Virus record (IMG/VR): IMGVR_UViG_2541047774_000002
From: a virus
Lineage: Duplodnaviria; Heunggongvirae; Uroviricota; Caudoviricetes
DNA length: 21,199 nucleotides
Direction: 5' to 3' (one strand)
Below, piece after piece: positions 1 to 17,343 of the stretch (its first letter is position 1; every line of letters starts with the position of its first letter). The notes under the pieces were generated by a model that was given only the letters and a program-made list of their open reading frames with translations, searched no databases and had not been told where the DNA came from. The position numbers and the translations under genes were made by a program.

Positions 1-1254
1 ATGCTGGAACAAATGGGCATTGCCGCGAAGCAAGCCTCGTATAAATTAGCGCAACTCTCCAGCCGCGAAAAAAATCGCGTGCTGGAAAAAATCGCCGATG
101 AACTGGAAGCACAAAGCGAAATCATCCTCAACGCTAACGCCCAGGATGTTGCTGACGCGCGTGCCAATGGCCTTGGCGAAGCGATGCTTGACCGTCTGGC
201 ACTGACGCCCGCACGGCTGAAAGGCATTGCCGATGATGTGCGCCAGGTGTGTAACCTCGCCGATCCGGTGGGGCAGGTAATCGATGGCAGCGTACTGGAC
301 AGCGGCCTGCGTCTTGAGCGTCGTCGCGTACCGCTGGGGGTTATTGGCGTGATTTATGAAGCGCGCCCGAACGTGACGGTTGATGTCGCTTCGCTGTGCC
401 TGAAAACCGGTAACGCAGTGATTCTGCGTGGCGGTAAAGAAACCTGTCGCACTAACGCGGCAACGGTGGCGGTGATTCAGGACGCCCTGAAATCCTGTGG
501 CTTACCGGTGGGTGCCGTGCAGGCGATTGATAATCCTGACCGTGCGCTGGTCAGTGAAATGCTGCGTATGGATAAATACATCGACATGCTGATCCCGCGT
601 GGTGGCGCTGGTTTGCATAAACTGTGCCGCGAACAGTCGACGATCCCGGTGATCACAGGTGGTATAGGCGTATGCCATATTTATGTTGATGAAAGTGTAG
701 AGATTGCTGAAGCATTAAAAGTGATCGTCAACGCGAAAACTCAGCGTCCGAGCACATGTAATACGGTAGAAACGTTGCTGGTGAATAAAAACATCGCCGA
801 TAGCTTCCTGCCCGCATTAAGCAAACAAATGGAGGAAAGCGGCGTGGCATTACACGCAGATGCAGCTGCGCTGGCGCAGTTGCAGACAGGCCCCGCGAAG
901 GTGGTGGCTGTTAAAGCGGAAGAGTATGACGATGAGTTTCTGTCATTAGATTTGAACGTCAAAATCGTCAGTGATCTTGACGATGCCATCGCCCATATTC
1001 GTGAACACGGCACACAACACTCCGATGCGATCCTGACCCGCGATATGCGCAACGCCCAGCGTTTTGTTAACGAAGTGGATTCGTCCGCTGTTTACGTTAA
1101 CGCCTCTACGCGTTTTACCGACGGCGGCCAGTTTGGACTAGGTGCGGAAGTGGCGGTAAGCACACAAAAACTCCACGCGCGTGGCCCAATGGGGCTGGAA
1201 GCACTGACCACTTACAAGTGGATCGGTATTGGTGATTACACCATTCGTGCGTAA
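1..1254 (+). CDS. proA: gamma-glutamyl phosphate reductase
   Basis: 417-aa ORF starting at window base 1; sequence recognised as enterobacterial ProA ([21 protein letters not shown]...); lies directly upstream of thrW as in E. coli. Identity from memory, not from a search. Confidence 0.95.
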
Positions 1255-1368
1255 ATAAAACCGGGTGATGCAAAAGTAGCCATTTGATTCACAAGGCCAT
1301 TGACGCATCGCCCGGTTAGTTTTAACCTTGTCCACCGTGATTCACGTTCGTGAACATGTCCTTTCAGG

Positions 1369-1444
1369 GCCGATATAGCTCAGTTGGTAGAGCAGCGCAT
1401 TCGTAATGCGAAGGTCGTAGGTTCGACTCCTATTATCGGCACCA
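1369..1444 (+). tRNA. thrW: tRNA-Thr, anticodon CGT
   Basis: 76-nt sequence GCCGATATAGCTCAGTTGGTAGAGC...GGTTCGACTCC...CCA; anticodon CGT at tRNA positions 34-36; D-loop and T-loop (GGTTCGA) consensus; encoded 3' CCA. Confidence 0.95.
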
Positions 1445-1461
1445 TTCAAACATCTCCCCAA

Positions 1462-1537
1462 GTCTACTAAAGTCTTTCAAAACCCCTTATAATCCACGTA
1501 TTAAAGCCCCGTTCGTCTTTTGACGTCTACTAAAGTC
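1462..1537. repeat. two 13-bp direct repeats GTCTACTAAAGTC (1462-1474, 1525-1537), each followed by yyTCAAAAyC; candidate integrase arm-type sites / attL
   Basis: Exact 13-bp repeat read twice, 63 bp apart, in the 165-bp gap between the tRNA 3' end and the integrase start. Confidence 0.4.
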
Positions 1538-1609
1538 CCTCAAAATCTACGGTCAGATGGGGGTACTTATGGGGGTATTTGCTGTTCGGTTTAGTGGAGG
1601 TACCCCCAA

Positions 1610-2824
1610 GTGAAACTCAATGCCCGTCAAATAGACACAGCCAAGCCAAAAGAGAAGGCTTACAAGCTGGCCGATGGTGGCGGTTTGTATCTCTTGGTAA
1701 AACCTAATGGAGGTAAATACTGGCGACTTAAATATCGTGTAGCTGGTAAAGAGAAGCTATTGGCACTAGGTGTGTATCCTGAGGTTACTCTAGCCGATGC
1801 TCGGGCAAAACGTGAAGATGCGAAAAGAGGTATCGCTGGTGGTATCGATCCGATGGAAGCGAAACGAGAGGAAAAGATTGCCCGGGAAACGCAGTTAAAC
1901 AACACCTTCAAAGATATTGCCCTTGAGTGGCACAGTAGCAAATTAAAAAAATGGTCTGCTGGTTATGCTTCAGACATCCTCGAAGCCTTCAACAAAGATG
2001 TGTTCCCTTACATTGGCAAAAAACCAATCGCCGAAATCAAACCACTTGAACTTCTGAATGTGCTGCGGCGCATCGAGGGGCGAGGTGCTACAGAAAAAGC
2101 CAAAAAAGTGAGGCAGCGGTGCGGGGAAGTTTTCCGCTATGCAATAGTCACTGGTCGCGCAGAGTATAACCCTGCACCAGACCTTACTAGCGCGATGCAA
2201 GGCCATGAATCTAATCATTACCCTTTCCTTACAGCCAAAGAATTACCTGATTTTTTCAAGGCATTGTCCAGTTACTCAGGAAGCGCATTGGTTGTTATGG
2301 CGGCTCGTCTACTGATTATCACCGGCTTGCGAACTGGCGAACTACGTGGCGCATTATGGGATGAAATTGATTTCAACAAGGCTATCTGGGAGATACCCGC
2401 TTCACGTATGAAAATGCGGCGGCCTCATATTGTGCCATTGTCTGAGCAGGCTCTTTCGCTTATTGGGAAGATTAGAGAAATAACAGGCAATTACCCTCTT
2501 ATGTTTCCCGGGCGCAATGATCCAAGGAAAACAATGAGTGAGGCCAGCATAAACCAAGTGTTTAAGCGCATTGGCTACGCTGGACGTGTAACTGGTCATG
2601 GGTTCCGGCACACTATGAGTACGATTTTGCATGAGCAGGGCTATAACACTGCGTGGATAGAAACACAGCTCGCTCACGTTGATAAGAACTCAATTCGTGG
2701 CACATACAACCATGCGCAATATCTGGATGGAAGGCGGGAGATGCTTCAATGGTATGCCGACTATATGGATTCTCTCGAGCATGGCGGAAATGTGGTGCAT
2801 ATGGTGTTTGAAAAACACGCATGA
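1610..2824 (+). CDS. tyrosine integrase, P4-type (N-terminal arm-binding domain plus catalytic core)
   Basis: GTG start with GGAGG about 10 nt upstream; 404 aa; N-terminus LADGGGLYLLVKPNGGKYWRLKYRVAGKEKLLALGVYPEV typical of P4-family integrases; C-terminal HGFRHT and RGTYNHAQY motifs (His-x-x-Arg, Tyr nucleophile); sits next to a tRNA 3' end. Confidence 0.9.
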   Translation: MKLNARQIDTAKPKEKAYKLADGGGLYLLVKPNGGKYWRLKYRVAGKEKLLALGVYPEVTLADARAKREDAKRGIAGGIDPMEAKREEKIARETQLNNTFKDIALEWHSSKLKKWSAGYASDILEAFNKDVFPYIGKKPIAEIKPLELLNVLRRIEGRGATEKAKKVRQRCGEVFRYAIVTGRAEYNPAPDLTSAMQGHESNHYPFLTAKELPDFFKALSSYSGSALVVMAARLLIITGLRTGELRGALWDEIDFNKAIWEIPASRMKMRRPHIVPLSEQALSLIGKIREITGNYPLMFPGRNDPRKTMSEASINQVFKRIGYAGRVTGHGFRHTMSTILHEQGYNTAWIETQLAHVDKNSIRGTYNHAQYLDGRREMLQWYADYMDSLEHGGNVVHMVFEKHA

Positions 2825-3132
2825 AACAACTGGACAAGTGTACAGAGGTTTACTAAAGTATAGGGGAGTAGATTGATAAAAACTCACAGAGGATTGCTAT
2901 TTACCAGTTAGCCTTGGAGAAGGGCAATCGCTCTTTTATAAACGAAGGTGTATTGAGCCTTCTACGCTGCTGAAAAGCGGAATGTTCTTTAACAGGCTTT
3001 GGCGCTGACAAAGCGCAATTGTTCTTTAAAACTACTGGATGTCACGCCTAATAGCGTGATCCTGCCGAAATGCAGGGTAGCTCTACCCTTGTGGAGCAAA
3101 CAAACCAAAACAATCTGACTATCTTTTATAAA

Positions 3133-3163
3133 AGACCGCAATATGTTTTTCATATTGTGGTCT
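3133..3163. promoter_or_regulatory. inverted repeat AGACCGCAATATG-ttttt-CATATTGTGGTCT (one mismatch) upstream of alpA; candidate operator or hairpin
   Basis: 13-bp arms with a 5-nt loop read in the 430-bp int-alpA intergenic region; function unknown. Confidence 0.3.
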
Positions 3164-3251
3164 TTGGCGTATTCGACATTTGACGCAAATAAAACTCTCG
3201 CCATTCGTTGCAGGAGGGGGTTATTGCGTCATTAGTACAGGATATTAATAA

Positions 3252-3455
3252 ATGGCTAATTACAATTCATTAATTCGTCTCTCTGAAGTTCAAAGGCGAA
3301 CTGGTTATAGCAAAGCATGGATTTATCGTCTTATTAGTCAGGGGAGGTTCCCTAAACAGGTAAAAATTGGAAGTCGGGCTATTGCTTTTGTTGAGTCTGA
3401 AATAGATGAATGGATTGAGAAGTGTATATTAGAATCTAGAGACGAGGTGGCCTGA
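3252..3455 (+). CDS. alpA: AlpA-family HTH transcriptional regulator (excisionase-like)
   Basis: 67 aa; LIRLSEVQRRTGYSKAWIYRLISQGRFPKQVKIGSRAIAFVESEIDEWI matches the AlpA/Vis pattern (HTH, then FP-x-P-V-K-I/L-G-x-R-x-x-x-W, then E-x-E-x-W); position after int is typical of P4/PICI-like elements. Confidence 0.8.
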   Translation: MANYNSLIRLSEVQRRTGYSKAWIYRLISQGRFPKQVKIGSRAIAFVESEIDEWIEKCILESRDEVA

Positions 3456-3886
3456 TGGAAAAGAAAAACCGCCCATTACAGGCGGCTAATTCAGATATTC
3501 GCGTATCTGATATTACGCCCCTTACAAAATCCCTTCAAGCACCAAAGCGCACACCGAAAAAGCATCGTGCCCGAGTCTATATGCTGCGTACTGGTATAGA
3601 GGGATGGACAGAAAACGACATTCTTCGCTACTGCCGTCTGTCTTCTGGTCGTAACTATGCAACAGAGTTAGAACGCCAGCTTGGAATCACTCTGGAGCGT
3701 ATCGACGAAAAGAATCCTGATGGTATCGGAACACACCTTCGCTACCGTTTCTCCTGCCGTGGTGATGTTCTGAAAGTGATCACTCATATTAACCATCTTG
3801 CGAACATAAATGATCACAACGGACTTTCTCAGCAGGAAATTGCCGACATTCTGAAACTCTACCCGGACGCGTTTAACGCCGCTTAA
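3455..3886 (+). CDS. hypothetical protein, 143 aa, basic N-terminus
   Basis: Start overlaps alpA stop (TGATG); ordinary amino-acid composition; no motif I can name. Confidence 0.6.
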   Translation: MEKKNRPLQAANSDIRVSDITPLTKSLQAPKRTPKKHRARVYMLRTGIEGWTENDILRYCRLSSGRNYATELERQLGITLERIDEKNPDGIGTHLRYRFSCRGDVLKVITHINHLANINDHNGLSQQEIADILKLYPDAFNAA

Positions 3887-3898
3887 CGGAGACTGAAA

Positions 3899-4732
3899 AT
3901 GAACATCGAAAAAAGCAGATTAATTTCTGAGGCCGCCCCTCATCTGAACGCCTCTCTGAGCACAATTAACGGTAATGAATTTGCCGCAATTGTCCCGGTT
4001 ATTCCTGGTCATATCGGTGGGCGTGAAACCAATATTGTTAGCGCAAAAGCGTTACACAAAGCGTTGGGCGTGGGAAAAGACTTCTCTACATGGATCACTG
4101 ATCGCATCTCTGAATATGACTTCACCATTGGGCACGATTACTCAGTCCATAAAACTATTTCCCCAAATTTGGGGAAAAGCCCGAATGGCGCGGCTTACAG
4201 CAAGATTAAGCAGTCTGGCAGACCCGGCAAAGACTATCTGTTAAGTGTCGGAATGGCGAAAGAACTGGCAATGATCGAACGCAATGATCAGGGTCGCGCT
4301 ATCCGCCGTTATTTCATCCAGTGCGAGGAAGAATTACAGCGTAGCGTTCCTGAAATCGCCGCCCGCTATCGTCGCCAGCTAAAAGCCCGTATCAGTGCCG
4401 CAAACAACTTTAAGCCAATGTGCGATGCGCTGAATATGGCCCGTGCCGAGCAGGGGAAAACGACGCAGCAACACCACTACACAAACGAGAGCAATATGAT
4501 TTCTCGTATCGTTCTTGGTGGGCTAACTGCTAAGCAGTGGGCGCGGATAAATGGCTATTCTGGCGAACCTCGCGACCATATGAACGCAGAACAACTTGAG
4601 CACCTCTCATATCTCGAAAGCACCAATATCACGTTAATTGATATGGGCATGGAATATGAGCAGCGCAAAGGAGAACTCACCCGCCTGTCGCAACGCTGGC
4701 TCGCTAAGCGTCTGGAGGTGGTCCATGTTTAA
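3899..4732 (+). CDS. phage antirepressor-like protein (Bro-N/KilAC-type, tentative)
   Basis: 277 aa; GGAGACTG RBS; central segment DYLLSVGMAKELAMIERNDQGRAIRRYFIQCEEEL resembles antirepressor/KilA-type DNA-binding proteins; family assignment is from memory. Confidence 0.55.
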   Translation: MNIEKSRLISEAAPHLNASLSTINGNEFAAIVPVIPGHIGGRETNIVSAKALHKALGVGKDFSTWITDRISEYDFTIGHDYSVHKTISPNLGKSPNGAAYSKIKQSGRPGKDYLLSVGMAKELAMIERNDQGRAIRRYFIQCEEELQRSVPEIAARYRRQLKARISAANNFKPMCDALNMARAEQGKTTQQHHYTNESNMISRIVLGGLTAKQWARINGYSGEPRDHMNAEQLEHLSYLESTNITLIDMGMEYEQRKGELTRLSQRWLAKRLEVVHV

Positions 4733-4907
4733 GCCGACAGGAACACCACAACCTCAAAAACGCTACAAGGATGCCCACGGAGCACTCGTTACTGTCGAAA
4801 GCGTGTCTCACAACCGAGTGACGTTTTATCGCGACGGGTATCAATCGCCATGCGTACAACCGCTGGCGCGCTTCATGAAGGAGTTCGCGGAGGTTAACAA
4901 ATGCTAA
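4725..4907 (+). CDS. small hypothetical protein (60 aa)
   Basis: ATG 6 nt after a strong GGAGGTGG SD, overlapping the stop of the preceding gene; the track ORF 4638-4907 probably starts here. Confidence 0.45.
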   Translation: MFKPTGTPQPQKRYKDAHGALVTVESVSHNRVTFYRDGYQSPCVQPLARFMKEFAEVNKC

Positions 4908-5338
4908 CCGTCCAGAAGAAGATATTTTCACTGGCTGGTATGTCGCCAAAATCCAGCAATATGACAGCAAAGTCTGGCATTAATACAGCAGATACAAGCA
5001 AAGTTTATCATTTTCTGGTGGTGGGAGCGGATGCCTTAACTATGTCAGAAATTACGGTCGATGGTGTTAGCGTTGAGAAGGTCGGCGGCTGCGCCAGAGA
5101 ATTTCTGGTCGTAGATGGCTTTCTCTGCTCGCGTAGTGACTCCACAAAAACCTTCGTCCACACGCGCGACGTTAACGAAATGAGCGCGATGTATTGTGCA
5201 TCTGGTGCTTCCAATAGTGAGTTTTCGGAGTCCATAAAAAAGAGCTTGCCGTTATGCGGCAACACGGTTTATGGTTATAAGGCACCTCATAAAACGGGTG
5301 CCGGGTTTCGCAGCCCGGAAATGTACGAGGCGACACAT

Positions 5339-5360
5339 GACGCGCCGAGCGTCTTTTTTT
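5339..5360 (+). terminator. possible rho-independent terminator (GACGC-gccga-GCGTC then TTTTTTT)
   Basis: 5-bp stem, 5-nt loop, 7 T; the stem is short so this is weak. Confidence 0.3.
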
Positions 5361-5562
5361 GTGCCGTTAGCCAGACTCACACTTTTTTCAGTGATGCGGT
5401 TATAATCCGCGTCGCTTGCAAAATTATGGTGGGCTGGACAGGGCAGCCGAAAGGCTGGCCGGTTTCCTTGTACGCCGGTACTGCGAACTCTGTTCAGTCC
5501 ACCACCAGCGAGTTTCGCAGCTCCGGTGGTGGGAAGAATTCCCAGTACAAGGAGGCTGCCAC

Positions 5563-5757
5563 ATGCTGGCTACTACCCCTACCCAAAAACCGCAATTTAT
5601 CTGGATTATCGCCGCAGTTCGCCGCGATTGCCCGACAATTACCGCCAAAATTCATCATATTGCTGCCGAGTCTGAACGCGATGCTCGCCGTTCTCTGGTG
5701 CGCGATCACGTCTGCTTTTTTGCTGGTCGTATCCGCATGGAGGTGGCACATGATTAA
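5563..5757 (+). CDS. small hypothetical protein (64 aa)
   Basis: ATG preceded by a near-consensus SD AAGGAGG at 5549-5555; first gene of a translationally coupled chain that runs to the primase; function unknown. Confidence 0.5.
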   Translation: MLATTPTQKPQFIWIIAAVRRDCPTITAKIHHIAAESERDARRSLVRDHVCFFAGRIRMEVAHD

Positions 5758-5968
5758 AACCTACGATGTGCATATGGATCCCCTCGAACGCACAAGCCAG
5801 ATCATCACACTGACAGAAGTGATTAATGACATTCTGGTGAGCAACTCTCCCTCACGAGACGAAAAACTGAAGGCGTTACTCGCGATATTGGATCTCGCCG
5901 TTCGTGACGTTCATTTCCTGCTGGAAGGTGGCGAAATGCCAGGAAAAACGGGGGCAACCAATGAATAA
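5750..5968 (+). CDS. hypothetical protein (72 aa)
   Basis: ATG overlaps the upstream stop (ATGATTAA); GGAGG upstream; this is the 3' segment of the 355-aa track ORF, whose upstream part I reject. Confidence 0.5.
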   Translation: MIKTYDVHMDPLERTSQIITLTEVINDILVSNSPSRDEKLKALLAILDLAVRDVHFLLEGGEMPGKTGATNE

Positions 5969-6155
5969 CTCAATTAATGCCCCTCGACTTACGTCCGCAC
6001 TTCAATTAATCGAGCAAGCAGCGGCTGTCCTGGTTGCTGTCAGTCTTTCGGCTGAAGAAATGGACGCTGCTGATGTCGTGGATGCGATTAAAGCGTGCTC
6101 ATCTTTGGTTAACGATGCTCGTGCAGAGCTGGTAATTCTTGGGGGTGAAAAATGA
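5961..6155 (+). CDS. hypothetical protein (64 aa)
   Basis: ATG overlapping the upstream stop (ATGAATAA); alternative start at 5904 in the track. Confidence 0.45.
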   Translation: MNNSINAPRLTSALQLIEQAAAVLVAVSLSAEEMDAADVVDAIKACSSLVNDARAELVILGGEK

Positions 6156-6415
6156 ATATCAACTTAATTTATCGTCATCCGTGTGAGCTGGAAATTGAAT
6201 CATTGCTGAGCCGTGAAGAGCCATATCCAGACACATTCACTCTTGCAGATCGCACGACTGAACGGCTTACCAGAGCGCGCACAGGTCTGGTTCATGTGAT
6301 GAATGAGATTCTTCCATCGGTGGGAGGGGAACAGGCGACAGTAATCACTAGCTGGCTACAAAAAGTTACCTCTCTGATAGATATCAGTTTAATCGATGCG
6401 GAGAGTGCGAAATGA
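6152..6415 (+). CDS. hypothetical protein (87 aa)
   Basis: ATGA start/stop overlap with the upstream gene; acidic protein. Confidence 0.55.
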   Translation: MNINLIYRHPCELEIESLLSREEPYPDTFTLADRTTERLTRARTGLVHVMNEILPSVGGEQATVITSWLQKVTSLIDISLIDAESAK

Positions 6416-6633
6416 CCAACATCCAGCTCATTGAAGCACAATGTCGCATCGAACAGGTTCAGACTGTTTTAGGGTTCTGGCTTGAAGGGGCCAGCCCCAG
6501 CAACAGAGACAAGTTAATGATTGGCGCGGTTATGTCACTGCTCAATGGCGTACCAGAAGCTATTCAGGAAGCAGACGAATTGTTGGGCAAATATGAGTTA
6601 CAGAATCATTCAGGCGAGGCGAAACATGAATAA
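6412..6633 (+). CDS. hypothetical protein (73 aa)
   Basis: ATGA overlap with the upstream gene. Confidence 0.55.
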   Translation: MTNIQLIEAQCRIEQVQTVLGFWLEGASPSNRDKLMIGAVMSLLNGVPEAIQEADELLGKYELQNHSGEAKHE

Positions 6634-7228
6634 TTTCTTAACTTTCCATGCAGAAGCAACGCCTGACGGCGTAAACATCATGTACCGCAGCAACGATGGA
6701 ATGACAGAACGCGTTGAGGCCGTCTCATATATTGATGCCGTAAATCGTCTGGATGCCGGGGATTATGACGATAAACCAGATGAAGGTATGTCAATACATC
6801 TCGCTATAGCCGATGGCGGCAACCAGGGATATTTCGATTACACATCACAGCATAACGTCATTATGTGGAGATGGCTGATCGCAACAGTATTCATGCTGGA
6901 AATGAGAGAGGAAAACGGCACTGTCAGCATCATTGATGATACTGGCAATCCTTCCGAAGTGGCTGTTTATTCCAACGGCATCGTCGCCATGCCGCTGTAT
7001 CCAGTAGCAGAGCGCCTCGCTATGGCAAACAACATTGAGGGCGCGATGATAGAACGTTTTGGCATCGAGTCTGGCACAGAACGCGCCATCATTTTCTACA
7101 GAGCCATGATGGATGTGGAACAAGGAGCACTGACTCCATTTGGTCGTGAAACGCTTGCTGAACTTCACAACAGCTTTATAGCTGAACTGAATGAAAACGG
7201 CATGCCAGCGGAACCAGTGACGCACTGA
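6626..7228 (+). CDS. hypothetical protein (200 aa)
   Basis: ATG at 6626 overlaps the upstream stop; the track's alternative start at 6521 is less likely because it would overlap the preceding gene by more than 100 nt. Confidence 0.55.
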   Translation: MNNFLTFHAEATPDGVNIMYRSNDGMTERVEAVSYIDAVNRLDAGDYDDKPDEGMSIHLAIADGGNQGYFDYTSQHNVIMWRWLIATVFMLEMREENGTVSIIDDTGNPSEVAVYSNGIVAMPLYPVAERLAMANNIEGAMIERFGIESGTERAIIFYRAMMDVEQGALTPFGRETLAELHNSFIAELNENGMPAEPVTH

Positions 7229-7238
7229 GGATGGAACC

Positions 7239-7580
7239 ATGATTACTAAAAATTTCCGACTGAATGCGCTGGCAAATAAGTATGCGTCGGCACTGTATAA
7301 CCACATTACCTCCACCAGCGGCGGGGACTATTTCATGGTTGATGCGGACGGCGAGGCCGTCCGTGTGGAAATCGTCAATGGAGTAAAAGGCGTTCGCAGC
7401 CTGATCGATAGCTACACACTAGCAACCATGAAAGTGTTCTACCCGCAGTGGGAAACCGTGGGGATCGAGCTTCTTGATCGTTGCGTCACTAAGGACGGAT
7501 TGACTGACGTTGGGCGCGAGATATGGCAAAGCATGGTTAATGACATGGGCGCAACTGTAGCGGGAGGTTCTCATGCGTGA
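7239..7580 (+). CDS. hypothetical protein (113 aa)
   Basis: ORF with GAGG about 8 nt upstream; same operon. Confidence 0.6.
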   Translation: MITKNFRLNALANKYASALYNHITSTSGGDYFMVDADGEAVRVEIVNGVKGVRSLIDSYTLATMKVFYPQWETVGIELLDRCVTKDGLTDVGREIWQSMVNDMGATVAGGSHA

Positions 7581-7944
7581 AAATGCAGAAATGGCGCTTA
7601 GCTCCGCAATCGGAGAGCAGGTGGCAAAGATTGCTGGTGCTGTGTGGATTCATAACCTTCATTCTACTGGTGAAGAGAAAATGGCAATTCAGACGCCAGA
7701 GGGACGCACCATTACTACATCTCTGAAGCCGTCAGATGTTTGTGATCTGATTTGCGCATTCATGTACCCAGCAATGAGGACTGCCCACGGCGATAAGTGG
7801 AAACTTGCGACAACCGCTGAATTTGATATGTGGCTAAACAATGATGGCATGCTGACTGATTACGGAATAACCAAGTGGCAGATGCTGGTTAGCCATATCG
7901 CAAACGCTATAGACCACGTGGGGTACGGTGATGCGAAACATTGA
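7573..7944 (+). CDS. hypothetical protein (123 aa)
   Basis: Overlaps both neighbours; same operon, immediately upstream of the primase. Confidence 0.6.
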   Translation: MRENAEMALSSAIGEQVAKIAGAVWIHNLHSTGEEKMAIQTPEGRTITTSLKPSDVCDLICAFMYPAMRTAHGDKWKLATTAEFDMWLNNDGMLTDYGITKWQMLVSHIANAIDHVGYGDAKH

Positions 7945-10687
7945 TCTTATCCGTCAGGTTATCAGTGCGTCTGAAAACAACTGGCCTCATGTGCTGGGCT
8001 GCCTGAACATAAATGTCCCTGACTCTCCGCGCCGTCATGCTCCCTGCCCTGCATGTGGGGGCAAAGATCGATTCCGGTTCGATGACAACGGGCGCGGTAG
8101 CTTCATCTGTAATCAGTGCGGCGCTGGTGATGGGCTGGATTTAATTAAACGCGTAAATAACTGCGACACAACAGAGGCGGCGCTTCTTGCCGCTGATGTT
8201 CTGGGTATTGATTACCGGACAACGGAAACACCAGAAGCCACCAGCCAGAAACGGGAACAACTGGAAACCGAGCGCCAGCGACGCGAACAGGAGCGCCTGA
8301 AAAGGGCAGAGAAGGATGAACAACAAAGACGGGATACGTTTTCCCGTCAGTTTGATGACATGCGCAGAAAGGCTGTAAACGGCAAATCTGATTATCTGGT
8401 TGCGAAAGGGGTAGGTGATTTTACATTCCCCGTGTTGCCCGATGGATCTCTGTTGCTGGCGCTGGTGGATAAATCCGGCGCAGTCACAGCAGCACAGACA
8501 ATTACCTCACATGGTGAAAAAAGACTCCTGACAGGTTCAGCAAAGCGGGGGGCATATCACGCCATAAACGCACCAGAAACAACACAGAGCATCTTAATCG
8601 CAGAAGGGCTGGCAACGGCATTATCTGCCCATTTAATTCGTCCAGAGGCGCTGACAGTGGCGGCGATTGATGCCGGGAACCTGTTATATGTCGCCCAGGT
8701 ACTGCGGGATAAATTTCCTTCAGCACAAATTATCATTGCTGCGGATAACGACCACAGCGAAGGAAGACAAAACACGGGGAGAATAGCAGCAGAAAAAGCA
8801 GCTTTATCTGTTTCTGGATGGGTGGCATTACCCCCGACAGATCACAAAGCAGACTGGAATGATTACCACCAAAAACACGGCATTAAATGCGCCACAGAAG
8901 CGTTCAATAAGTCAATGTACCAACCACAGGGTAATGGCGTGAAACAGGAGCCACAGACCATTGAGGGAAGCGATTTTAAGGTTATGGATACCGACCCACT
9001 GAAACCAAGAATAGAAAGCCGCGAGGATGGTATTTATTGGGTATCTCCGAGAGCTGACAGTCAGAGTGGAGAAATCATCAATAACGAAAGCTGGTTATGT
9101 TCTCCGTTAAGCGTTATCGGTACTGGCAGAGACGATAAAGACCAGTATCTCATTCTTCGCTGGCTGTCGTTTGGTTCTGAAACGCCGACAACCGCTGCCA
9201 TTCCACTGGCTGATATTGGTGAACGTGAAGGATGGCGCACACTTAAAGCTGGTGGGGTAAATGTCACGACCAAAAGCAGCCTCAGAGCAATACTGGCAGA
9301 CTGGCTACAACGCAGTGGCTCTCGTGAATTGTGGCGTGTTGCTCATGCCACTGGCTGGCAATGCGGAGCGTACATCATGCCTGATGGGGAAATCATCGGA
9401 ACACCTGAAAATCCTGTGCTGTTCAGCGGGAGAAGCTCAGCCGCAGCCGGATATACCGTCTCAGGGAGCGCGAAAAGCTGGCGTGATAACGTGGCGCGTC
9501 TGGCCTTTGGTAACTATTCAATGATGACCGGGATCGGCGCAGCACTGGCAGCGCCATTGATTGGGCTGGTGGGCGCTGACGGGTTCGGCATTCATTTCTA
9601 TGAGCAGTCGAGCGCAGGTAAGACCACCACGGCAAACGTGGCGAGCAGCTTATACGGCAACCCTGATTTACTGCGGCTGACGTGGTACGGAACCGCGCTG
9701 GGGCTGGCAAATGAAGCTGCCGCCCACAATGACGGACTAATGCCGCTTGATGAAGTTGGTCAGGGCGCTGATCCTGTCAGTGTTTCACAGTCTGCCTATG
9801 CGTTATTTAACGGTGTAGGGAAACTGCAAGGCGCTAAAGATGGTGGAAACCGGGATCTAAAACGCTGGCGTACAGTGGCAATCAGCACCGGAGAAATGGA
9901 TTTAGAAACATTTATCGCTACTTCCGGGCGAAAAACCAAAGCCGGGCAACTGGTGCGACTGCTGAATATTCCGTTGAGTAAAGCAGTACGCTTTCACGAT
10001 TACCAGAACGGAAAACAGCACGCAGACGCACTGAAAGACGCTTACCAGCATCACCACGGCGCAGCCGGGCGTGAGTGGATTAAATGGCTGACAGACCACC
10101 AGCAACAGGCAATTAAAACTGTTCGTGACTGCGAAAGCAGATGGAGAAGTCTGATCCCATCCGATTATGGTGAGCAGGTTCACCGTGTAGCCGCGCGATT
10201 TGCCATTCTGGAGGCCGCATTGCTGTTAGGCGAGGTTGTAACAGGCTGGGATGCTCAGACATGCCGTGATGCGATACAGCACAGCTATAACGCATGGTTG
10301 CGCGAGTTCGGCACAGGTAACAAAGAGCATCAGCAGATTATTGAACAAACGGAGGCATTTCTTAATGCCTATGGGCTTAGCCGTTTTGCACCATTTCCAT
10401 ACAGCCCGGCAGATTTGCCCATCAAAGATTTAGCCGGATACCGTCAGCGTGGAGAACATGACGAAAGCCCAATGATTTTCTACACATTCCCGGCCACATT
10501 TGAAAAGGAGATCGCATGTGGTTTCAACGCAAAACAGTTTGCTGAAGTGTTGAAAAAAGCCGGGATGCTAACCCCACCAAACAGCGGTCGTGGATACCAA
10601 AGAAAATCACCACGTATTCAGGGACGACAAATAAACGTTTATGTACTCAATTACCAGCCAGGAGATTATAACTCATCTGAAGAATGA
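7928..10687 (+). CDS. replicative primase-helicase (zinc-ribbon + Toprim + P-loop NTPase), P4-alpha/PICI-Pri-like
   Basis: 919 aa; N-terminal Cys4 motif CPACGG...CNQCG; Toprim-like acidic motif IIIAADNDHSEG; Walker A EQSSAGKTT and Walker-B-like GLMPLDEVGQ in the C-terminal half; followed directly by iterons. Confidence 0.9.
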   Translation: MMRNIDLIRQVISASENNWPHVLGCLNINVPDSPRRHAPCPACGGKDRFRFDDNGRGSFICNQCGAGDGLDLIKRVNNCDTTEAALLAADVLGIDYRTTETPEATSQKREQLETERQRREQERLKRAEKDEQQRRDTFSRQFDDMRRKAVNGKSDYLVAKGVGDFTFPVLPDGSLLLALVDKSGAVTAAQTITSHGEKRLLTGSAKRGAYHAINAPETTQSILIAEGLATALSAHLIRPEALTVAAIDAGNLLYVAQVLRDKFPSAQIIIAADNDHSEGRQNTGRIAAEKAALSVSGWVALPPTDHKADWNDYHQKHGIKCATEAFNKSMYQPQGNGVKQEPQTIEGSDFKVMDTDPLKPRIESREDGIYWVSPRADSQSGEIINNESWLCSPLSVIGTGRDDKDQYLILRWLSFGSETPTTAAIPLADIGEREGWRTLKAGGVNVTTKSSLRAILADWLQRSGSRELWRVAHATGWQCGAYIMPDGEIIGTPENPVLFSGRSSAAAGYTVSGSAKSWRDNVARLAFGNYSMMTGIGAALAAPLIGLVGADGFGIHFYEQSSAGKTTTANVASSLYGNPDLLRLTWYGTALGLANEAAAHNDGLMPLDEVGQGADPVSVSQSAYALFNGVGKLQGAKDGGNRDLKRWRTVAISTGEMDLETFIATSGRKTKAGQLVRLLNIPLSKAVRFHDYQNGKQHADALKDAYQHHHGAAGREWIKWLTDHQQQAIKTVRDCESRWRSLIPSDYGEQVHRVAARFAILEAALLLGEVVTGWDAQTCRDAIQHSYNAWLREFGTGNKEHQQIIEQTEAFLNAYGLSRFAPFPYSPADLPIKDLAGYRQRGEHDESPMIFYTFPATFEKEIACGFNAKQFAEVLKKAGMLTPPNSGRGYQRKSPRIQGRQINVYVLNYQPGDYNSSEE

Positions 10688-10712
10688 GCTTCTTCATGTG
10701 CGTAGAAAAGGT

Positions 10713-10823
10713 GTTGGTTCAGTTGGTTCAGTTGGTTCAATTTGTAAATAGTATTGTTTTATAAGGATTTTATTCTTTTTATTGAACCAACACTGAACCA
10801 ACAACACGGTATTTTGAACCAAC
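10713..10823. repeat. iteron cluster / putative replication origin: 3 tandem GTTGGTTCA (10713-10739), AT-rich spacer, 3 inverted TGAACCAAC (10783-10791, 10794-10802, 10815-10823)
   Basis: Repeats counted directly; iterons flanking an AT-rich core directly downstream of a primase-helicase gene is standard satellite/plasmid origin architecture. Confidence 0.6.
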
Positions 10824-10873
10824 ACAATGTGACTGAATTGATGCGCACAACACCTGGCTGGCATCAGAGAGTG

Positions 10874-10950
10874 TTTTACGAGACTTTCGTAAAATCCTGT
10901 GTACAAGGGCGTGACGTTTTTGAAAGTGGGCACTACGAAATTTTCGTAGT
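10874..10950. promoter_or_regulatory. two related palindromes: TTTTACGA-n5-TCGTAAAA (10874-10894) and perfect 19-bp ACTACGAAA-T-TTTCGTAGT (10932-10950); candidate operator pair
   Basis: Shared TACGA(A/G)A...TTTCGTA half-sites about 40 bp apart; neither is followed by a T-run, so they are more likely protein-binding sites than terminators. Confidence 0.35.
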
Positions 10951-11143
10951 TCAAAAAACAGCCTCTGAGAAGTTGTTATGCCTGTTCAGCAAACCATCCA
11001 CATAGCTGATCGCGAATCAAATTACCAATGGAGCCAGAAGCAAGGGCAGAACTGAAAAGCGCCTGCCGTGAAGAGTAATGCGACACCATAAATATAGTTT
11101 TTAGAGTCCATAAAAAACCTGTCAAAACCTGACACACAGAACG

Positions 11144-11177
11144 ATGCCACCAGCTACTGAGCGGTGGCATTTTTTTG
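11144..11177 (+). terminator. rho-independent terminator (ATGCCACC-loop-GGTGGCAT then TTTTTT)
   Basis: Perfect 8-bp stem, 11-nt loop, 6-7 T on the + strand; separates the replication module from the downstream operon. Confidence 0.6.
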
Positions 11178-11271
11178 TGCTATTTGTTTCATATTTTGCA
11201 ATTACGATGATGAATATTGCGATTTGTGAAACTATAATAACTGTTGTTTTATACAGTTCTAAGGGGGCGTT

Positions 11272-11433
11272 ATGGCTATTTCAGTAAAGCCGGTATTGAT
11301 AAGTGAGAAGCAAATGGAAGCGATAAAGAAAATTCAGGAAGAGCAGCGTAAAAAATCAGGAATTGGAGTAGCGCCAACTCTGCATGAAATTGCACGAGGG
11401 TTAATAGATAAGGCGCTGGCAGGCTGTATGTGA
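11272..11433 (+). CDS. small protein (53 aa), possible small DNA-binding regulator
   Basis: Not in the ORF track (under 60 aa). ATG 5 nt after AAGGGGG; translation read by hand: MAISVKPVLISEKQMEAIKKIQEEQRKKSGIGVAPTLHEIARGLIDKALAGCM; stop 16 nt before the next gene; sits right after an AT-rich promoter-like region. Confidence 0.4.
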   Translation: MAISVKPVLISEKQMEAIKKIQEEQRKKSGIGVAPTLHEIARGLIDKALAGCM

Positions 11434-11449
11434 AAATGGATGGCATCGC

Positions 11450-11911
11450 ATGGAACTAAAATTTATTGATAACCCTGTGCGATTACAGGCCTTTCTTAAC
11501 GAGCCAGGCAATACCGAAAATATTGTTGAGCCGGGGCACACGTACTACATCAAGCCTGATGCGGTATATCTCGGCATCTACGAAGGATTAGTGCTGGCTG
11601 GCGTTCATGAAGTGCGTAACTTCTGGCATAGCGTTGTTGAATGCCATGCGGTGTACGACCCCGGATTCCGTGGTGAATATGCACTGCAAGGGCATCGATT
11701 ATTCTGCAAATGGCTTCTCGAAAACTCACCATTCCTTAACAGCATCACTATGGTTCCTGACACCACGAAATATGGACGGGCAATTATCCGTTTGCTTGGC
11801 GCTACCCGTGTTGGTCACCTTGATGATGCTTATATCAGATGTGGTAAACCCGTCGGCGTAACGCTTTATCAGTTAACTCGGCAACAATATAAGGAATTCA
11901 GCGAATGTTAA
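11450..11911 (+). CDS. hypothetical protein (153 aa); possible accessory protein of an ejection-protein module (P22 gp14-like position)
   Basis: Normal globular composition; stop overlaps the start of the 699-aa gene (ATGTTAA); the positional assignment is inference only. Confidence 0.7.
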   Translation: MELKFIDNPVRLQAFLNEPGNTENIVEPGHTYYIKPDAVYLGIYEGLVLAGVHEVRNFWHSVVECHAVYDPGFRGEYALQGHRLFCKWLLENSPFLNSITMVPDTTKYGRAIIRLLGATRVGHLDDAYIRCGKPVGVTLYQLTRQQYKEFSEC

Positions 11912-14004
11912 TTACCCATATAGCTCATAAACATCTCAATCGTGCCGTATACGAAAAAGGCGGTGATGGTGGTGCCTCTAAAGCTCAGGCGAAGGCCCAG
12001 CAGCAGGCAATTGATTTGCAGCGCGAGCAGTGGAATACGGTGATGAATAATCTCAAGCCGTATGCAGAAGTCGGATTGCCTGCTTTACAACAACTGCAAG
12101 GACTGATGACTCTGGAAGGGCAGAATAAAGCCGCGAATGATTTCTTTGGTTCTGGTTTATATAAAACACAGGCAGATCAGGCCCGTTATCAGAACCTTGT
12201 CTCAGCAGAAGCTACCGGGGGGCTTGGCTCAACAGCTACCAGTAACCAGTTATCTTCCATTGCGCCCATGCTTTATAACAATTGGCTCAGTGGGCAAATG
12301 CAAAATTATGGAAACCTGCTAAATGTCGGGATGAATGCGGCATCAGGGCAGGCAACAGCAGGGCAAAACTACGCCAATAATACCGGGCAACTCTTGCAGG
12401 GGCTTGGCGCTATTCGTGCAGGTCAGGCGCAGCAGCCATCCAGTCTTGCGCGTGGTATTGGTGGGGCGGCATCAGGCGCTTTAGCGGGTGCGCAACTTGG
12501 TTCCGTTGTTCCGGGTATAGGTAATGTCGCCGGGGCTATTGGTGGTGGGCTTATTGGTCTTGTTGGGGGGGCTTGGATTCTAATGGCGACATGGCAACTT
12601 GGCGGGCTGCCTAGCATGGCACCGCAAAATGATAATGCTCCTCGTTCTTCCGTTCCTCAGCCTGTGCAGTATCAGCAGCACCCAAACGTAGGTTTAATGG
12701 CGCTACAGGGGCTAAGAGGCGTTGCTGAGATTAATCAGCAGGCACGTCAACAACAGCGTAAAGCAGAGTTTCAGAAAGCATATGCCGGGGCTTTTGAGTC
12801 TGGAGACAGAAACAAAATGCGCAGTCTTATTTCTGAGTATCCAGAAGAATTTGAAAGCGTTCAGAAAGGGATGGGCTTTATTGATGACGACCAGAGAAAT
12901 TCTATTGGTCATCTTGCGACTAGTGCTCAAATCGCATCTTCGCTCGGAACTGGGGCATTTGGAAAATTCATAGCAGATAACGAAGATGAAATGCGTCGCT
13001 TGGGAATTTCTCCTGAGTCTGTTGCCGAAATGCATGTTAATGATCCACAGGGATTCCAGCGGCTTGCTGGTAGTATGGCACTGTTTTCTCTCGGTCATGA
13101 GAAGTATTTCGATATCAAAGATCAAATGGAAGGTCGGGATATTGAGCGTGGCAAGTTGGCAGAGACAATCCGCAGCAATCAGGCTGGCGAAGCACTTCAG
13201 GCGAGAGGGCAGGATATTAGCCGAGCAAATGCGTTAACGTCAGCATATGCACCAACAGCAGCAATGCAGAATTACAATCAGTACGCTCAAATGTTAAAGG
13301 CGGATCCAGAGGGGGCGGCGGCATTTGCGGCAGCGGCTGGAATTAATACAAACGCCAAAAAATTAATGAGTGTTAGAGAAAACGATGATGGCACTGTCAC
13401 AAAATACTACACAGACGGAAGTGAAGAGCAGGGAAAACTAAACCAGCCAATATCTGGAGATGGGTTTCGTCCAATAGCTTTGCCAACAGCCCAAAAGATC
13501 ATGGAAAAGTCGCCAGAAGGGGCTAAAAAAGCTGCTGGATTTGCATACAGGGTTAGGGATGCTCTTGATTCAATAGATACACTGAAAGACCAGCTTAGCC
13601 CACAGCGAGTGGCGATCATTAATAATGCTTTGGGTAATGGGACGCTGGCTAACTTAACGCTCAGCCCAACAGAGCAGCAATACGTTGTTAATGCTAATGA
13701 CGCAATAATGGCAATACTCCGTCAGGAAACAGGGGCAGCTATCGCACCTGCTGAAATGTCAAAATATTATCAAATGTATTTCCCTCAGCCTGGCGACTCC
13801 ACAAAAACCATTGATACCAAGCGCCGGAAGATGGAAAACCAGTTCAATTCGCTGAAAGCTGCTTCTGGTCGAGCTTATGATGCTTTGCGGGTTATTTCAG
13901 CAGTTGACAGAGGAACTTCTTCTTCGTCGCAGACATTGCCGCAATCTGAGCAGGTATCACAGCCAGCAGCCAGCAGTAACTTTTCTTCACTATGGGGTGA
14001 TTAA
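11905..14004 (+). CDS. large low-complexity protein (699 aa); candidate phage ejection / internal-virion (DNA-transfer) protein
   Basis: N-terminal EKGGDGG followed by a Q/A-rich coiled-coil-like stretch; Q/N/G/A-rich low-complexity region; glycine-zipper hydrophobic segment GSVVPGIGNVAGAIGGGLIGLVGGAWILMATW; essentially no Cys; translationally coupled on both sides. Confidence 0.75.
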   Translation: MLITHIAHKHLNRAVYEKGGDGGASKAQAKAQQQAIDLQREQWNTVMNNLKPYAEVGLPALQQLQGLMTLEGQNKAANDFFGSGLYKTQADQARYQNLVSAEATGGLGSTATSNQLSSIAPMLYNNWLSGQMQNYGNLLNVGMNAASGQATAGQNYANNTGQLLQGLGAIRAGQAQQPSSLARGIGGAASGALAGAQLGSVVPGIGNVAGAIGGGLIGLVGGAWILMATWQLGGLPSMAPQNDNAPRSSVPQPVQYQQHPNVGLMALQGLRGVAEINQQARQQQRKAEFQKAYAGAFESGDRNKMRSLISEYPEEFESVQKGMGFIDDDQRNSIGHLATSAQIASSLGTGAFGKFIADNEDEMRRLGISPESVAEMHVNDPQGFQRLAGSMALFSLGHEKYFDIKDQMEGRDIERGKLAETIRSNQAGEALQARGQDISRANALTSAYAPTAAMQNYNQYAQMLKADPEGAAAFAAAAGINTNAKKLMSVRENDDGTVTKYYTDGSEEQGKLNQPISGDGFRPIALPTAQKIMEKSPEGAKKAAGFAYRVRDALDSIDTLKDQLSPQRVAIINNALGNGTLANLTLSPTEQQYVVNANDAIMAILRQETGAAIAPAEMSKYYQMYFPQPGDSTKTIDTKRRKMENQFNSLKAASGRAYDALRVISAVDRGTSSSSQTLPQSEQVSQPAASSNFSSLWGD

Positions 14005-16109: not shown

Positions 16110-16113
16110 CTGG

Positions 16114-16137
16114 TTAGCCATGGATGGCTAATTTTTG
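16114..16137 (+). terminator. rho-independent terminator (TTAGCC-atggat-GGCTAA then TTTTTG) in the 18-bp gap between convergent genes
   Basis: 6-8 bp stem followed by a T-run on the + strand; the stop codon of the convergent minus-strand gene lies inside the hairpin. Confidence 0.5.
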
Positions 16138-16487
16138 TTCTTTGCTCTCATCCATAGGTAAAGAAGGGAAAGAACAAGACAAAAAACAGAGAATAGATAA
16201 CCTACCTCATATGGTGCGCCAAAAAAATTAGCTATTGATACGGGCAAAAAAGCTGAGGCGATCAAAATTGAAAGGCAAAAAATAAGCCCAGTAATATAGT
16301 TTATTAAATTCTTAAATGAGAAACGTTTTGCTTGATTTACGGTCTTAACGAACGATCGCTTAACGACGGATAAAAGCAAATAGATGGCGACAGTTGCTAA
16401 TGCCCCTTTCCACCAGTCTGGATATAGTTTTGCGACAATCAGACCAAGGAAAACCGTAAGCGTAAACTGACCGCCGTATGTAGCCAT
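16128..16487 (-). CDS. small integral membrane protein (3-4 predicted TM helices); 5' end interrupted by the IS66-family insertion
   Basis: Hydrophobic segments ALATVAIYLLLSVV, ITGLIFCLSILIASAFLPV, VGYLFSVFCLVLSLLYLWM; the first 11 codons of the track ORF (16456-16487) lie inside the IS left inverted repeat, so the native gene continues beyond the IS (see findings). Confidence 0.5.
   Translation of the reverse strand: MATYGGQFTLTVFLGLIVAKLYPDWWKGALATVAIYLLLSVVKRSFVKTVNQAKRFSFKNLINYITGLIFCLSILIASAFLPVSIANFFGAPYEVGYLFSVFCLVLSLLYLWMRAKNKN
16448..16455. repeat. target-site duplication GGAAAACC (left copy)
   Basis: 8 bp immediately outside the IS left end, identical to 18988-18995. Confidence 0.8.
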
Positions 16488-16540
16488 CAGACGAGAATTG
16501 GTAACTTAGACGCCCATCTGATATAGACGGACATCTAAGT

Positions 16541-16966
16541 ATGGAATTACAGGACTGGCGAAAAGAACCTCGTAAAAACTATTCGAATGAATTCAAACTT
16601 CGTATGGTGGAACTGGCATCACAACCTGGAGCTTGTGTTGCACAGATTGCACGTGAAAATGGCGTCAATGATAATGTTATTTTCAAATGGCTCAGGCTCT
16701 GGCAGAACGAAGGGCGTGTTTCGCGGCGTCTTCCGGTAACGACCTCTTCTGACACTGGCGTTGAATTATTACCTGTAGAAATAACGCCGGATGAGCAGAA
16801 AGAACCTGTGGCGGCCATTGCGCCGTCTTTATCCACTTCCACTCAGACCAGAGTCAGTGCCAGTTCCTGCAAGGTGGAATTCCGTCACGGTAACATGACG
16901 CTGGAAAATCCATCGCCAGAGCTGCTCACAGTGTTGATCCGTGAACTGACCGGGAGGGGAAGATGA
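16541..16966 (+). CDS. IS66-family accessory protein TnpA (orf1)
   Basis: 141 aa; N-terminal HTH-like region; stop overlaps the tnpB start (ATGA). Confidence 0.85.
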   Translation: MELQDWRKEPRKNYSNEFKLRMVELASQPGACVAQIARENGVNDNVIFKWLRLWQNEGRVSRRLPVTTSSDTGVELLPVEITPDEQKEPVAAIAPSLSTSTQTRVSASSCKVEFRHGNMTLENPSPELLTVLIRELTGRGR

Positions 16967-17313
16967 TCTCACTCCCATCAGGTACCCGTATCTGGCTCGT
17001 TGCCGGCGTTACCGATATGCGTAAATCCTTCAACGGACTGGGAGAACAGGTACAACATGTGCTGAATGATAATCCCTTCTCCGGTCACCTGTTTATCTTC
17101 CGTGGCCGACGGGGTGACACCGTCAAAATTCTTTGGGCTGATGCTGATGGTCTGTGCCTGTTCACCAAACGCCTGGAGGAAGGCCAGTTTATCTGGCCTG
17201 CGGTACGTGACGGCAAGGTATCCATTACCCGCTCGCAACTGGCAATGCTCCTCGATAAGCTGGACTGGCGTCAGCCAAAAACATCCAGCCGTAACTCACT
17301 GACAATGTTGTAA
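16963..17313 (+). CDS. IS66-family Orf2 / TnpB
   Basis: 116 aa; sequence recognised as the IS66 Orf2 family (LPSGTRIWLVAGVTDMRKSFNGL...); size and position typical. Confidence 0.9.
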   Translation: MISLPSGTRIWLVAGVTDMRKSFNGLGEQVQHVLNDNPFSGHLFIFRGRRGDTVKILWADADGLCLFTKRLEEGQFIWPAVRDGKVSITRSQLAMLLDKLDWRQPKTSSRNSLTML

Positions 17314-17343
17314 AAAACTCCTGACCGCATTATAAAAACGGTC

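Follow-up and report, generated by a model that had tools for sequence, protein, structure and literature searches.

The DNA analysed here, a stretch of 21,199 nucleotides (nt) from IMG/VR virus record IMGVR_UViG_2541047774_000002 (hereafter the window), carries between positions 1369 and 2824 a threonine tRNA gene, thrW, closely followed by an integrase gene, and this locus raises the question of what kind of element starts there, where it ends, and whether the DNA behind it is one unit or several. A first, sequence-only reading had placed an island boundary at this point, with a P4-type integrase, no right end within the window and a composite interior. We find that 1369-2824 is very probably the left junction (left attachment site, attL, plus integrase gene) of a 20,247-bp phage-inducible chromosomal island (PICI) of the EcCIMP1 type, integrated at the 3' end of thrW. 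EcCIMP1, of which this island is a variant, is an already known satellite; the finding is correct but ordinary, and its main gain is the correct annotation of the boundary of a published satellite family, with little else changed. The junction is made up of the following features.

1-1254, plus strand: proA, the chromosomal 5' flank, as annotated in near-identical Escherichia coli genomes; G+C fraction 0.54
1369-1444, plus strand: thrW, an intact tRNA-Thr(CGT) gene (ARAGORN; Rfam tRNA, 71.8 bits)
1428-1446, plus strand: attL core, TCCTATTATCGGCACCATT, consisting of the last T-loop base, the 3' half of the T stem, the 3' strand of the acceptor, CCA and 2 more nt
1462-1608, no strand assigned: candidate arm-type sites of the P' arm, GTCTACTAAAGTC at 1462-1482 and 1525-1545, and TGGGGGTA at 1558 and 1570 (plus strand) and 1601 (minus strand)
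1610-2824, plus strand: P4-family tyrosine integrase of 404 amino acids (aa), GTG start, identical to IntS_1 of EcCIMP1

ARAGORN identified a single tRNA gene in the window, the tRNA-Thr(CGT), and its position is that of thrW downstream of proA in annotated E. coli genomes. The element was shown to begin at TCCTATTATCGGCACCATT (1428-1446), leaving thrW intact. As had been read from the sequence, the integrase gene, an open reading frame (ORF) at 1610-2824, starts 165 bp after the tRNA, which ends at 1444, and the expected overlap of attL with the thrW 3' end is confirmed, the core at 1428-1446 being repeated at the right attachment site (attR). Integration at a tRNA 3' end, with a short block of identity that runs from the T loop and T stem to the 3' end, is the pattern of P4-family integrases; Williams reportedly described it in 2002 as the sublocation rule of the P4-type enzymes. 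The G+C profile that had been proposed as a check separates the two sides of the junction, with 0.54 in proA against 0.478 in the island when its IS66 element is left aside. The earlier remark that the window holds no second thrW 3' end was also right: CCTATTATCGGCACCA, searched in the window with up to three mismatches, matched only at 1429-1444, and the 10-nt core TCCTATTATC, searched with one mismatch, matched only at 1428. The version of the thrW end that is shorter by one G, which is the form of attR elsewhere, was not found on either strand of the window.

The right end of the element was located in assembly GCA_000457775.1, which was reached through an exact-protein look-up of a 699-aa gp7-gp20 fusion protein encoded by the island. 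Scaffold KE699955.1 of this assembly (291509-313608) is identical to window positions 1905-21199 at 19,295 of 19,295 positions, and runs past the window end; the window probably derives from this genome. Among the loci that we compared it is labelled L101, and those of strains 1943, MP1 and 22AR0118 are L004, L007 and L005, respectively. The attR core, TCCTATTATCG-CACCATT, lies at 19771-19788 of L101, equivalent to window position 21675; this is 476 nt beyond the window end and 476 nt after the stop codon of perC, the last gene before attR. This gives the element a length of 20,247 bp, or of approximately 17.7 kb without IS66. The island does therefore continue past 21199, as had been claimed, though by 476 nt only, in an assembly that is 100% identical. 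The downstream search for a repeat of the thrW 3' end, which had been suggested as a check, recovered attR in L101, JL05, 1943 and MP1, and the last three islands carry the same TCCTATTATCG-CACCATT, that is, the thrW end minus one G. In JL05 and 1943 the native flank past attR consists of TTAAAATCAAAGAG, a truncated LysR gene (yagP') and paoD; in L101 the chromosome, with the yagP'/paoD flank, directly abuts attR. Comparison with strains having an empty thrW, also suggested, was equally clear: of 5426 E. coli genomes, 948 contain a synthetic empty site, thrW joined to TTAAAATCAAAGAG, uninterrupted and at 100% identity, which fixes both boundaries. An integrase placed at the end of the element and a specific attachment site with flanking direct repeats are thus both found, as in PICIs. 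The IS66 junction of the window was matched in no complete E. coli genome.

The start of the integrase gene is the same in the RefSeq annotation of near-identical genomes, and the first residues of the protein, MKLNARQ, can be aligned with the N-terminus of P4 Int. Pfam assigns to the protein the domains Arm-DNA-bind_3 (DUF4102; 1.4e-28), Phage_int_M (1.3e-34) and Phage_integrase (1.1e-26), and its matches in the PDB are N-terminal and central domains of CP4-like and CPS-53 integrases. Identity to P4 Int is 42% over the full length (405 columns, E 3e-116), and the catalytic residues R241, H330-x-x-R333, H356 and Y366 are identical to those of P4 Int; with this architecture and this level of identity, the assignment to the P4 type stands. 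The nearest phage integrases, at around 49%, are those of Sf6, HK620, CUS-3 and Kapi1, and the Int of EcCIMP1 in strain MP1 is identical at 100% of its amino acids. Relatives with at least 83% identity, from eight species, are all encoded 165-167 nt downstream of a tRNA-Thr(CGT) gene, while a clade at 76-77% identity is found at tRNA-Arg(CCT) and another, at 64%, at tRNA-Arg(TCT). Integrase clade and tRNA target track each other exactly among the relatives of the satellite.

Regarding the sites on which the integrase may act, the two copies of GTCTACTAAAGTC form a direct repeat pair (repeat family D14), and TGGGGGTA occurs three times in the window, against 0.35 copies expected, always between thrW and the start of int. 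Two further copies of TGGGGGTA lie 70-82 nt upstream of attR in 1943 and L101, with none elsewhere in between. Taken together, TGGGGGTA and GTCTACTAAAGTC have the look of arm-type sites that flank the core of one attP on either side, which is the arrangement of P4. Relatives from Leclercia, Lonsdalea and Kluyvera intermedia carry this attL, attR and set of arm octamers as well. We propose that Int would bind the core and the TGGGGGTA/GTCTACTAAAGTC arm sites that flank attP on both sides, and that strand exchange would occur within the 7-nt CACCATT. Exchange at that position would account for the GG of the host in attL and the single G of the element in attR, and the predicted attP junction would read TTTTGT TCCTATTATCG(G)CACCATT CAAACATC.

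EcCIMP1 is a phage-inducible chromosomal island of E. coli MP1 (Pick, Stadel & Raivio, ISME J 2025; PMC11773190; GenBank OR778291 / CP139039). It has 19,963 bp and occupies the tRNA-Thr gene beside proA, with the core TCCTATTATC. Its excision and circularisation depend on the presence of Kapi1, a P22-like phage that also transduces it (PMC11773190). Both excision and transfer need int and the first alpA, deletion of intS_1 abolishes both, and the attP junction has been sequenced (PMC11773190). EcCIMP1 is without the packaging module of TerS, Rpp and capsid-morphogenesis genes and is placed in 'Type C' of the de Sousa scheme (PMC11773190). The island in the window has the same insertion site and core, TCCTATTATC, and its genes stand in the same order, down to the second alpA in reverse orientation and perC at the end. 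Int, AlpA and AlpA2 match their EcCIMP1 counterparts with 100% identity and the primase does so with 99.6%, and at the nucleotide level positions 1-12743 are 99.0% and positions 19093-20995 are 98.4% identical to MP1. Attachment core, site and backbone are therefore near-identical, and it is the cargo (ejection alleles, perC and insertion sequence (IS)) that differs. From the middle of gp20 to about 19.1 kb (12743-19093) the window has another allele; the gp16-like protein has 701 aa, against a 906-aa protein with a lytic-transglycosylase domain in MP1; PerC is 52% identical to EcCIMP1_025; gp7 and gp20 are fused; and an IS66 element is present, where the published map of the MP1 region shows IS1 (PMC11773190). 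The right end is shorter than in MP1 and without the pRiA4b ORF-3 genes, and the chromosome abuts attR, where in MP1 a decayed second island follows it. By analogy with EcCIMP1 and Kapi1, induction, excision, replication and transfer of the island would all depend on a helper phage.

The interior of the island, apart from a regulatory region that is listed further below, has the following features.

3252-3455, plus strand: alpA, 67 aa, expected to encode the master activator and excision cofactor (Pfam Phage_AlpA, 7e-20); 100% identical to AlpA of EcCIMP1
3899-4732, plus strand: AntA/AntB-type antirepressor-like gene (Pfam AntA, 1e-21), conserved in relatives
7931-10687, plus strand: primase/replicase gene (Pfam Zn-ribbon, TOPRIM and DUF927)
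10713-10823, no strand assigned: iteron cassette 1, the presumed origin, immediately behind the primase gene and built of three tandem GTTGGTTCA copies, an AT-rich spacer and three more copies in inverted orientation
11450-16109, plus strand: P22-type ejection cassette, with a gp14-like gene (11450-11911), a gp7-like gene fused to a gp20-like gene (11905-14004) and a gp16-like gene (14004-16109)
16456-18987, plus strand: IS66-family element with tnpA, tnpB and tnpC (Pfam IS66 domains; terminal inverted repeats I7)
20052-20237, minus strand: alpA2, an Xis-like second AlpA gene (alpA_1 of EcCIMP1; Pfam Phage_AlpA, 1.9e-13)
20755-20875, no strand assigned: iteron cassette 2, the reverse complement of cassette 1, with 65-nt arms that are 92% complementary and six perfect 9-mers
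20912-21199, plus strand: gene of a PerC-family regulator (Pfam PerC, 2.4e-32)

This layout, with alpA just downstream of int and then the primase/replicase gene with its adjacent origin, is that of a PICI. The element also agrees with the usual PICI size (about 10-20 kb, without capsid, tail or lysis genes), with the caveat that it has four homologues of virion-internal ejection proteins. Searches of the window proteins against Pfam and PHROGs found neither TerS, Rpp, Ppi or capsid-size genes nor genes for capsid, portal, large terminase, tail or lysis. With the PICIs of Gram-negative bacteria EcCICFT073 and EcCIEDL933 the island shares the order int-alpA-primase-origin, a PerC-family gene and a helper-induced alpA; in place of their packaging module it has a fragment carrying a pac site, the ejection cassette, the second AlpA and the second iteron cassette. 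It resembles P4 in the family of its integrase (42%), in integration at a tRNA 3' end with arm repeats on both sides of the core, in an AlpA/Vis-type regulator, in the N-terminal domains of the primase (33% identity), in a pair of isrK and C4/CI RNAs in the immunity region, and in two separate sets of one iteron, like ori and crr. It differs in the C-terminal part of the replicase, which is DUF927, in the presence of ejection-protein genes, and in the type of helper, which is P22-like (pac, headful) for the island and P2-like (cos) for P4. The P4 genes sid, psu, delta and epsilon were not found: in a tblastn comparison of all window proteins with P4, the matches were limited to int, the N-terminal part of alpha and the cI/'ash' region.

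Is the segment behind thrW one unit? The sequence-only reading saw modules of different ancestry in it, and these are indeed present: AlpA, AntA, the TOPRIM/DUF927 primase, homologues of P22 gp14/gp7/gp20/gp16, IS66, a second AlpA, PerC and two iteron sets. Its suggestion of tandem or nested acquisitions holds for IS66, which is nested, and fails for the remainder, which is a single satellite with one attL/attR pair and with octamers at its outer ends, of a type that moves as one in EcCIMP1. IS66 is flanked by an 8-bp duplication, GGAAAACC, and is absent at this site from 1943 and JL05; it is the only nested insertion, a later passenger. An array at thrW of at least two separately acquired elements (a satellite replication module, a P22-like remnant and a second satellite, in tandem or nested) would nonetheless accommodate the two AlpA genes and the two oppositely oriented iteron cassettes, the P22-like relatives of the ejection genes, of the Xis-like alpA2, of Int and of the pac fragment, an ejection operon oriented as in a P22 prophage at thrW, and the other allele of the ejection module that MP1 carries. 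Genuine tandem arrays do exist at thrW, in MP1 and 22AR0118, where a further island comes after an internal att copy; there is no such copy within the window. The arm-type octamers lie at the outer ends only, the whole unit excises as one circle in MP1 (PMC11773190), and synteny is kept in the 69 complete E. coli genomes that have at least 80% of the window in one place. The paired inverted iteron cassettes, moreover, recur in relatives from other genera that have neither the ejection genes nor alpA2. We therefore regard an array as improbable. A chimeric origin in the distant past, as opposed to a present-day array, is possible. The allele differences (12743-19093, perC and the spacer between int and alpA) represent modular exchange between sister islands rather than tandem insertion; another strain has a different int-alpA spacer together with an extra DUF6387 gene. 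The segment is one mobile unit with defined ends and one IS, neither a stack of islands nor an incomplete prophage.

The tRNA gene itself invites two other explanations, as it had been pointed out that thrW is the attachment site of P22 and of the K-12 cryptic prophage CP4-6. The island does use the same tRNA gene as attB, and there the likeness stops, for the integrases are unrelated: the comparison with P22 Int gave no meaningful similarity, that with IntF of CP4-6 only a weak local similarity that is not meaningful, and kinship to either was rejected. A decayed P22-like prophage, which prophage finders would report as an 'incomplete prophage', would be in place at thrW, where the P22 attP region shares about 46 nt with the tRNA gene, and would supply the gp14/7/20/16 homologues and a fragment of the small-terminase gene, terS; yet besides the unrelated integrase, the identity block of the island has 18-19 nt at the extreme 3' end, against about 46 nt from the anticodon loop in P22, no capsid, portal, large terminase, tail or lysis genes were found among the window proteins, and the replication and regulation modules are P4/PICI-like. 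An interpretation of this kind was withdrawn for EcCIMP1 by its own authors (PMC11773190), and we consider it highly improbable here. A variant of CP4-6 would share with the island the tRNA gene and the right chromosomal flank, yagP/paoD. This is next to impossible, being refuted by the position of IntF at the far right end of CP4-6, with its weak local similarity only, and by the 49 nt of thrW that CP4-6 duplicates; in addition, no annotated gene product is common to both. The gene thrW is thus used by three unrelated integrase systems, those of P22 and CP4-6 with the longer block (about 46 and 49 nt, from the anticodon loop) and the P4-type system of this island with a short block of 18-19 nt from the T loop, at the 3' extreme.

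With the island established as a single satellite of the EcCIMP1 type, its replication module can be compared with that of its relatives. The N-terminal 360 aa of the primase are 33% identical to P4 alpha, the whole protein is 99.6% identical to that of EcCIMP1, and relatives are found across the Enterobacterales. Among the relatives found through the primase (loci L023-L088), the replication backbone is common, and the region after the primase is highly variable. Perfect copies of the 9-mer GTTGGTTCA number 12 in the window, all of them in the two cassettes, which are about 10 kb apart. Leclercia adecarboxylata and Cedecea davisae both have the inverted pair, which in Lonsdalea britannica is partly degenerate; since relatives from other genera have the same pair, it is a family trait across genera, and for the same reason the second iteron set was rejected as a sign of a second satellite. 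The arrangement is reminiscent of P4, where the iteron occurs in ori (beside vis) and in crr (after alpha), and the TOPRIM/DUF927 primase may replicate the island from the two inverted cassettes in a manner comparable to P4 ori and crr.

The operon leading to the primase contains a region that resembles the RNA-based immunity region of P4, together with a piece of phage DNA on the opposite strand.

5049-5159, minus strand: 111-nt fragment of a P22-type small-terminase gene with pac site (28-nt core at 5128-5155), antisense inside the 'ash' ORF
5282-5359, plus strand: isrK-like RNA (Rfam isrK, 69 bits; gathering threshold 50)
5422-5509, plus strand: C4/CI-type antisense RNA (Rfam C4, 81.1 bits; gathering threshold 45)
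5563-5757, plus strand: icd-like small ORF of 64 aa, identical to the protein that RefSeq annotates in MP1 as 'Icd-like protein'

The isrK and C4 models of Rfam match both this region and the cI region of P4, in the same order, as expected of CI-type RNA immunity. The 355-aa 'ash family' ORF (4901-5968) is probably over-called, an over-translation of a P4-/P1-type RNA immunity region, and the arrangement points to immunity of the P4-/P1-type over the operon that leads to the primase. In the resident state, a P4-like C4/CI antisense RNA would silence the operon from icd to the primase. A P22-like helper in lytic growth would then turn on alpA, and AlpA together with Int would excise the island. 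The product of alpA2 is 43% identical to the excisionase of Kapi1 and 100% identical to the EcCIMP1 copy; in EcCIMP1 this second AlpA is dispensable for excision of the island and can back up the Xis of the helper (PMC11773190). The ORFs at 3455-3886, 7573-7944, 11272-11433, 19038-19418 and 19720-20055 had no match in Pfam or PHROGs.

The ejection cassette was recognised by Pfam (DUF2824 for the gp14-like protein, P22_gp7 and Inj_translocase, with Phage_P22_gp16 in the precomputed Pfam results) and by PHROGs (phrog_770, DNA transfer protein, 2.5e-163). The gp14-like protein has 84% aa identity to Kapi1_055, and the best phage match of the gp16-like protein is at 66%. At the DNA level, 11450-12039, which spans the gp14-like gene and the first part of the gp7-like gene, is 81% identical to Kapi1 27948-28536 over 596 nt, which suggests a fairly recent exchange; this is the sole nucleotide-level similarity between the island and its published helper. 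In the set of 66 related loci the cassette is confined to Escherichia and to one Leclercia locus. A run of seven G at 12565-12571, where other strains have six, causes a frameshift 17 nt before the stop codon of the gp7-like gene and gives the 699-aa gp7-gp20 fusion. Six contigs, drawn from several assemblies and read sets, encode this fusion, which is therefore a real allele, not a sequencing error. The island would thus provide its own ejection proteins of the gp14, gp7, gp20 and gp16 types.

How such an island is packaged was left open by the authors of EcCIMP1, who observed very low transfer by Kapi1 (PMC11773190). The pac-bearing terS piece, the isrK/C4 region and the full P22-type ejection cassette are not mentioned in that paper; the first two, together with the paired iteron cassettes, bear on the packaging question. 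Pac fragment, RNA immunity region, paired origins and ejection cassette are the part of this island that deserves the attention of specialists. Positions 5049-5155 are 87% identical to nt 4-110 of P22, a segment that covers the annotated P22 pac site (4-25), and 116 further phage records with a P22-type terS match them likewise. The 22-nt version of pac in the island, GAAGGTTTTTGTGGAGTCACTA, occurs exactly in three IMG/VR phage contigs, inside a full-length terS whose protein is 89.5% identical to P22 gp3 and whose DNA is 93.7% identical to 5049-5159 over the 111 nt. When the window was searched with a degenerate pac pattern of 28 nt, this site was the one match, against 0 expected; EcCIMP1 of MP1 has the pattern too. 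The published P22 pseudo-pac pattern (PMC10996546) fits the site of the island at 16 of 17 positions, and with its tenth position relaxed to admit G it gives a single match in the window.

Among the relatives, a search with TerS proteins (tblastn) gave no match at 1e-4, and the pac-like sites were found by searches at the DNA level. A Leclercia island has two pac-like sequences, one of which fits the strict pattern, and a Serratia relative has them in tandem, in each case with no further part of terS. Pac-like site and ejection cassette are found together in two of the 66 loci, one from Escherichia (L023, with a slightly different pac variant) and one from Leclercia (L052), and the pac-like site alone in one more (Serratia, L081). 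A full-length P22-type terS is present in 258 of the 5426 E. coli genomes, and one such gene matches the cognate variant at 99.8%. The P22-like prophage of the ST131 strain MB1159 is an example of a phage whose terS carries GAAGGTTTTTGTGGAGTCACTA. Kapi1 terS DNA was searched for in the island, and none was found there. An exact 15-nt repeat of part of the pac-like core, GACTCCACAAAAACC, lies in the same orientation at 13795-13809 in the gp20-like gene. As a second pac site it was rejected, for such a repeat is near chance level in 21 kb (estimated p of about 0.2) and fails the 28-nt pattern even with three mismatches.

The fragment at 5049-5159 is likely a packaging signal, judging from its similarity to pac. 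Satellites that carry the packaging signal of a helper are familiar, with the P2-type cos in P4 and the helper cos in SaPIbov5, and a preprint on the Vibrio PLE reportedly describes an ICP1-like pac in that element. The present island resembles these in bearing a helper's signal without a terminase of its own, and differs in that the putative signal is a 111-nt piece of the helper-type terS itself, placed antisense in the regulatory region. We lean slightly towards the idea that satellites of the EcCIMP1 type may be packaged without a terminase or redirecting protein by means of this pac-bearing terS piece together with their own P22-type ejection proteins. In this model the terminase of the helper would recognise the captured pac site (5128-5155), and headful packaging into helper capsids would follow. 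If true, P22-like phages whose terS/pac variant matches that of the island, rather than Kapi1, would be the efficient helpers, and the very low transfer obtained with Kapi1 would be accounted for.

Several points weigh against this picture of an active, helper-packaged EcCIMP1-type island. The alleles of the ejection module (12743-19093) and of perC are unlike those of MP1, so that behaviour may differ, and the island of this strain could be functionally impaired by its IS66 and by the joining of gp7 to gp20. The position of the crossover is deduced from one difference between G and GG, and a relative from Lonsdalea has GG at both ends. For the arm-type sites, the two-origin model and the RNA immunity, function is read from sequence and from analogy with P4. 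The pac-like fragment could be a relic, and the terS of the helper Kapi1 is of a different type and shares no pac-like DNA with the island, a fact that at the same time fits its very low transfer.

Two minor observations concern insertions at and near the island. IS66 interrupts a 129-aa ORF on the minus strand (window copy at 16128-16487) that is sited where P22 has sieA; neither the truncated copy of the window (Pfam) nor the intact 129-aa copy of 1943 (PHROGs) had a match. Different insertion sequences lie close by in other strains: JL05 has an IS3, and in 22AR0118 the gp16-like gene contains an IS66. This part of the island seems to tolerate or attract insertions. Outside the island, attR of MP1 is followed by further island DNA, with the truncated integrase gene (86% similarity) of the decayed second island and a vat/MarR island, and attR of 22AR0118 by further island DNA with CP4-6-like ykfI genes. 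Tandem accretion at thrW is thus real in some lineages, with att copies between the units.

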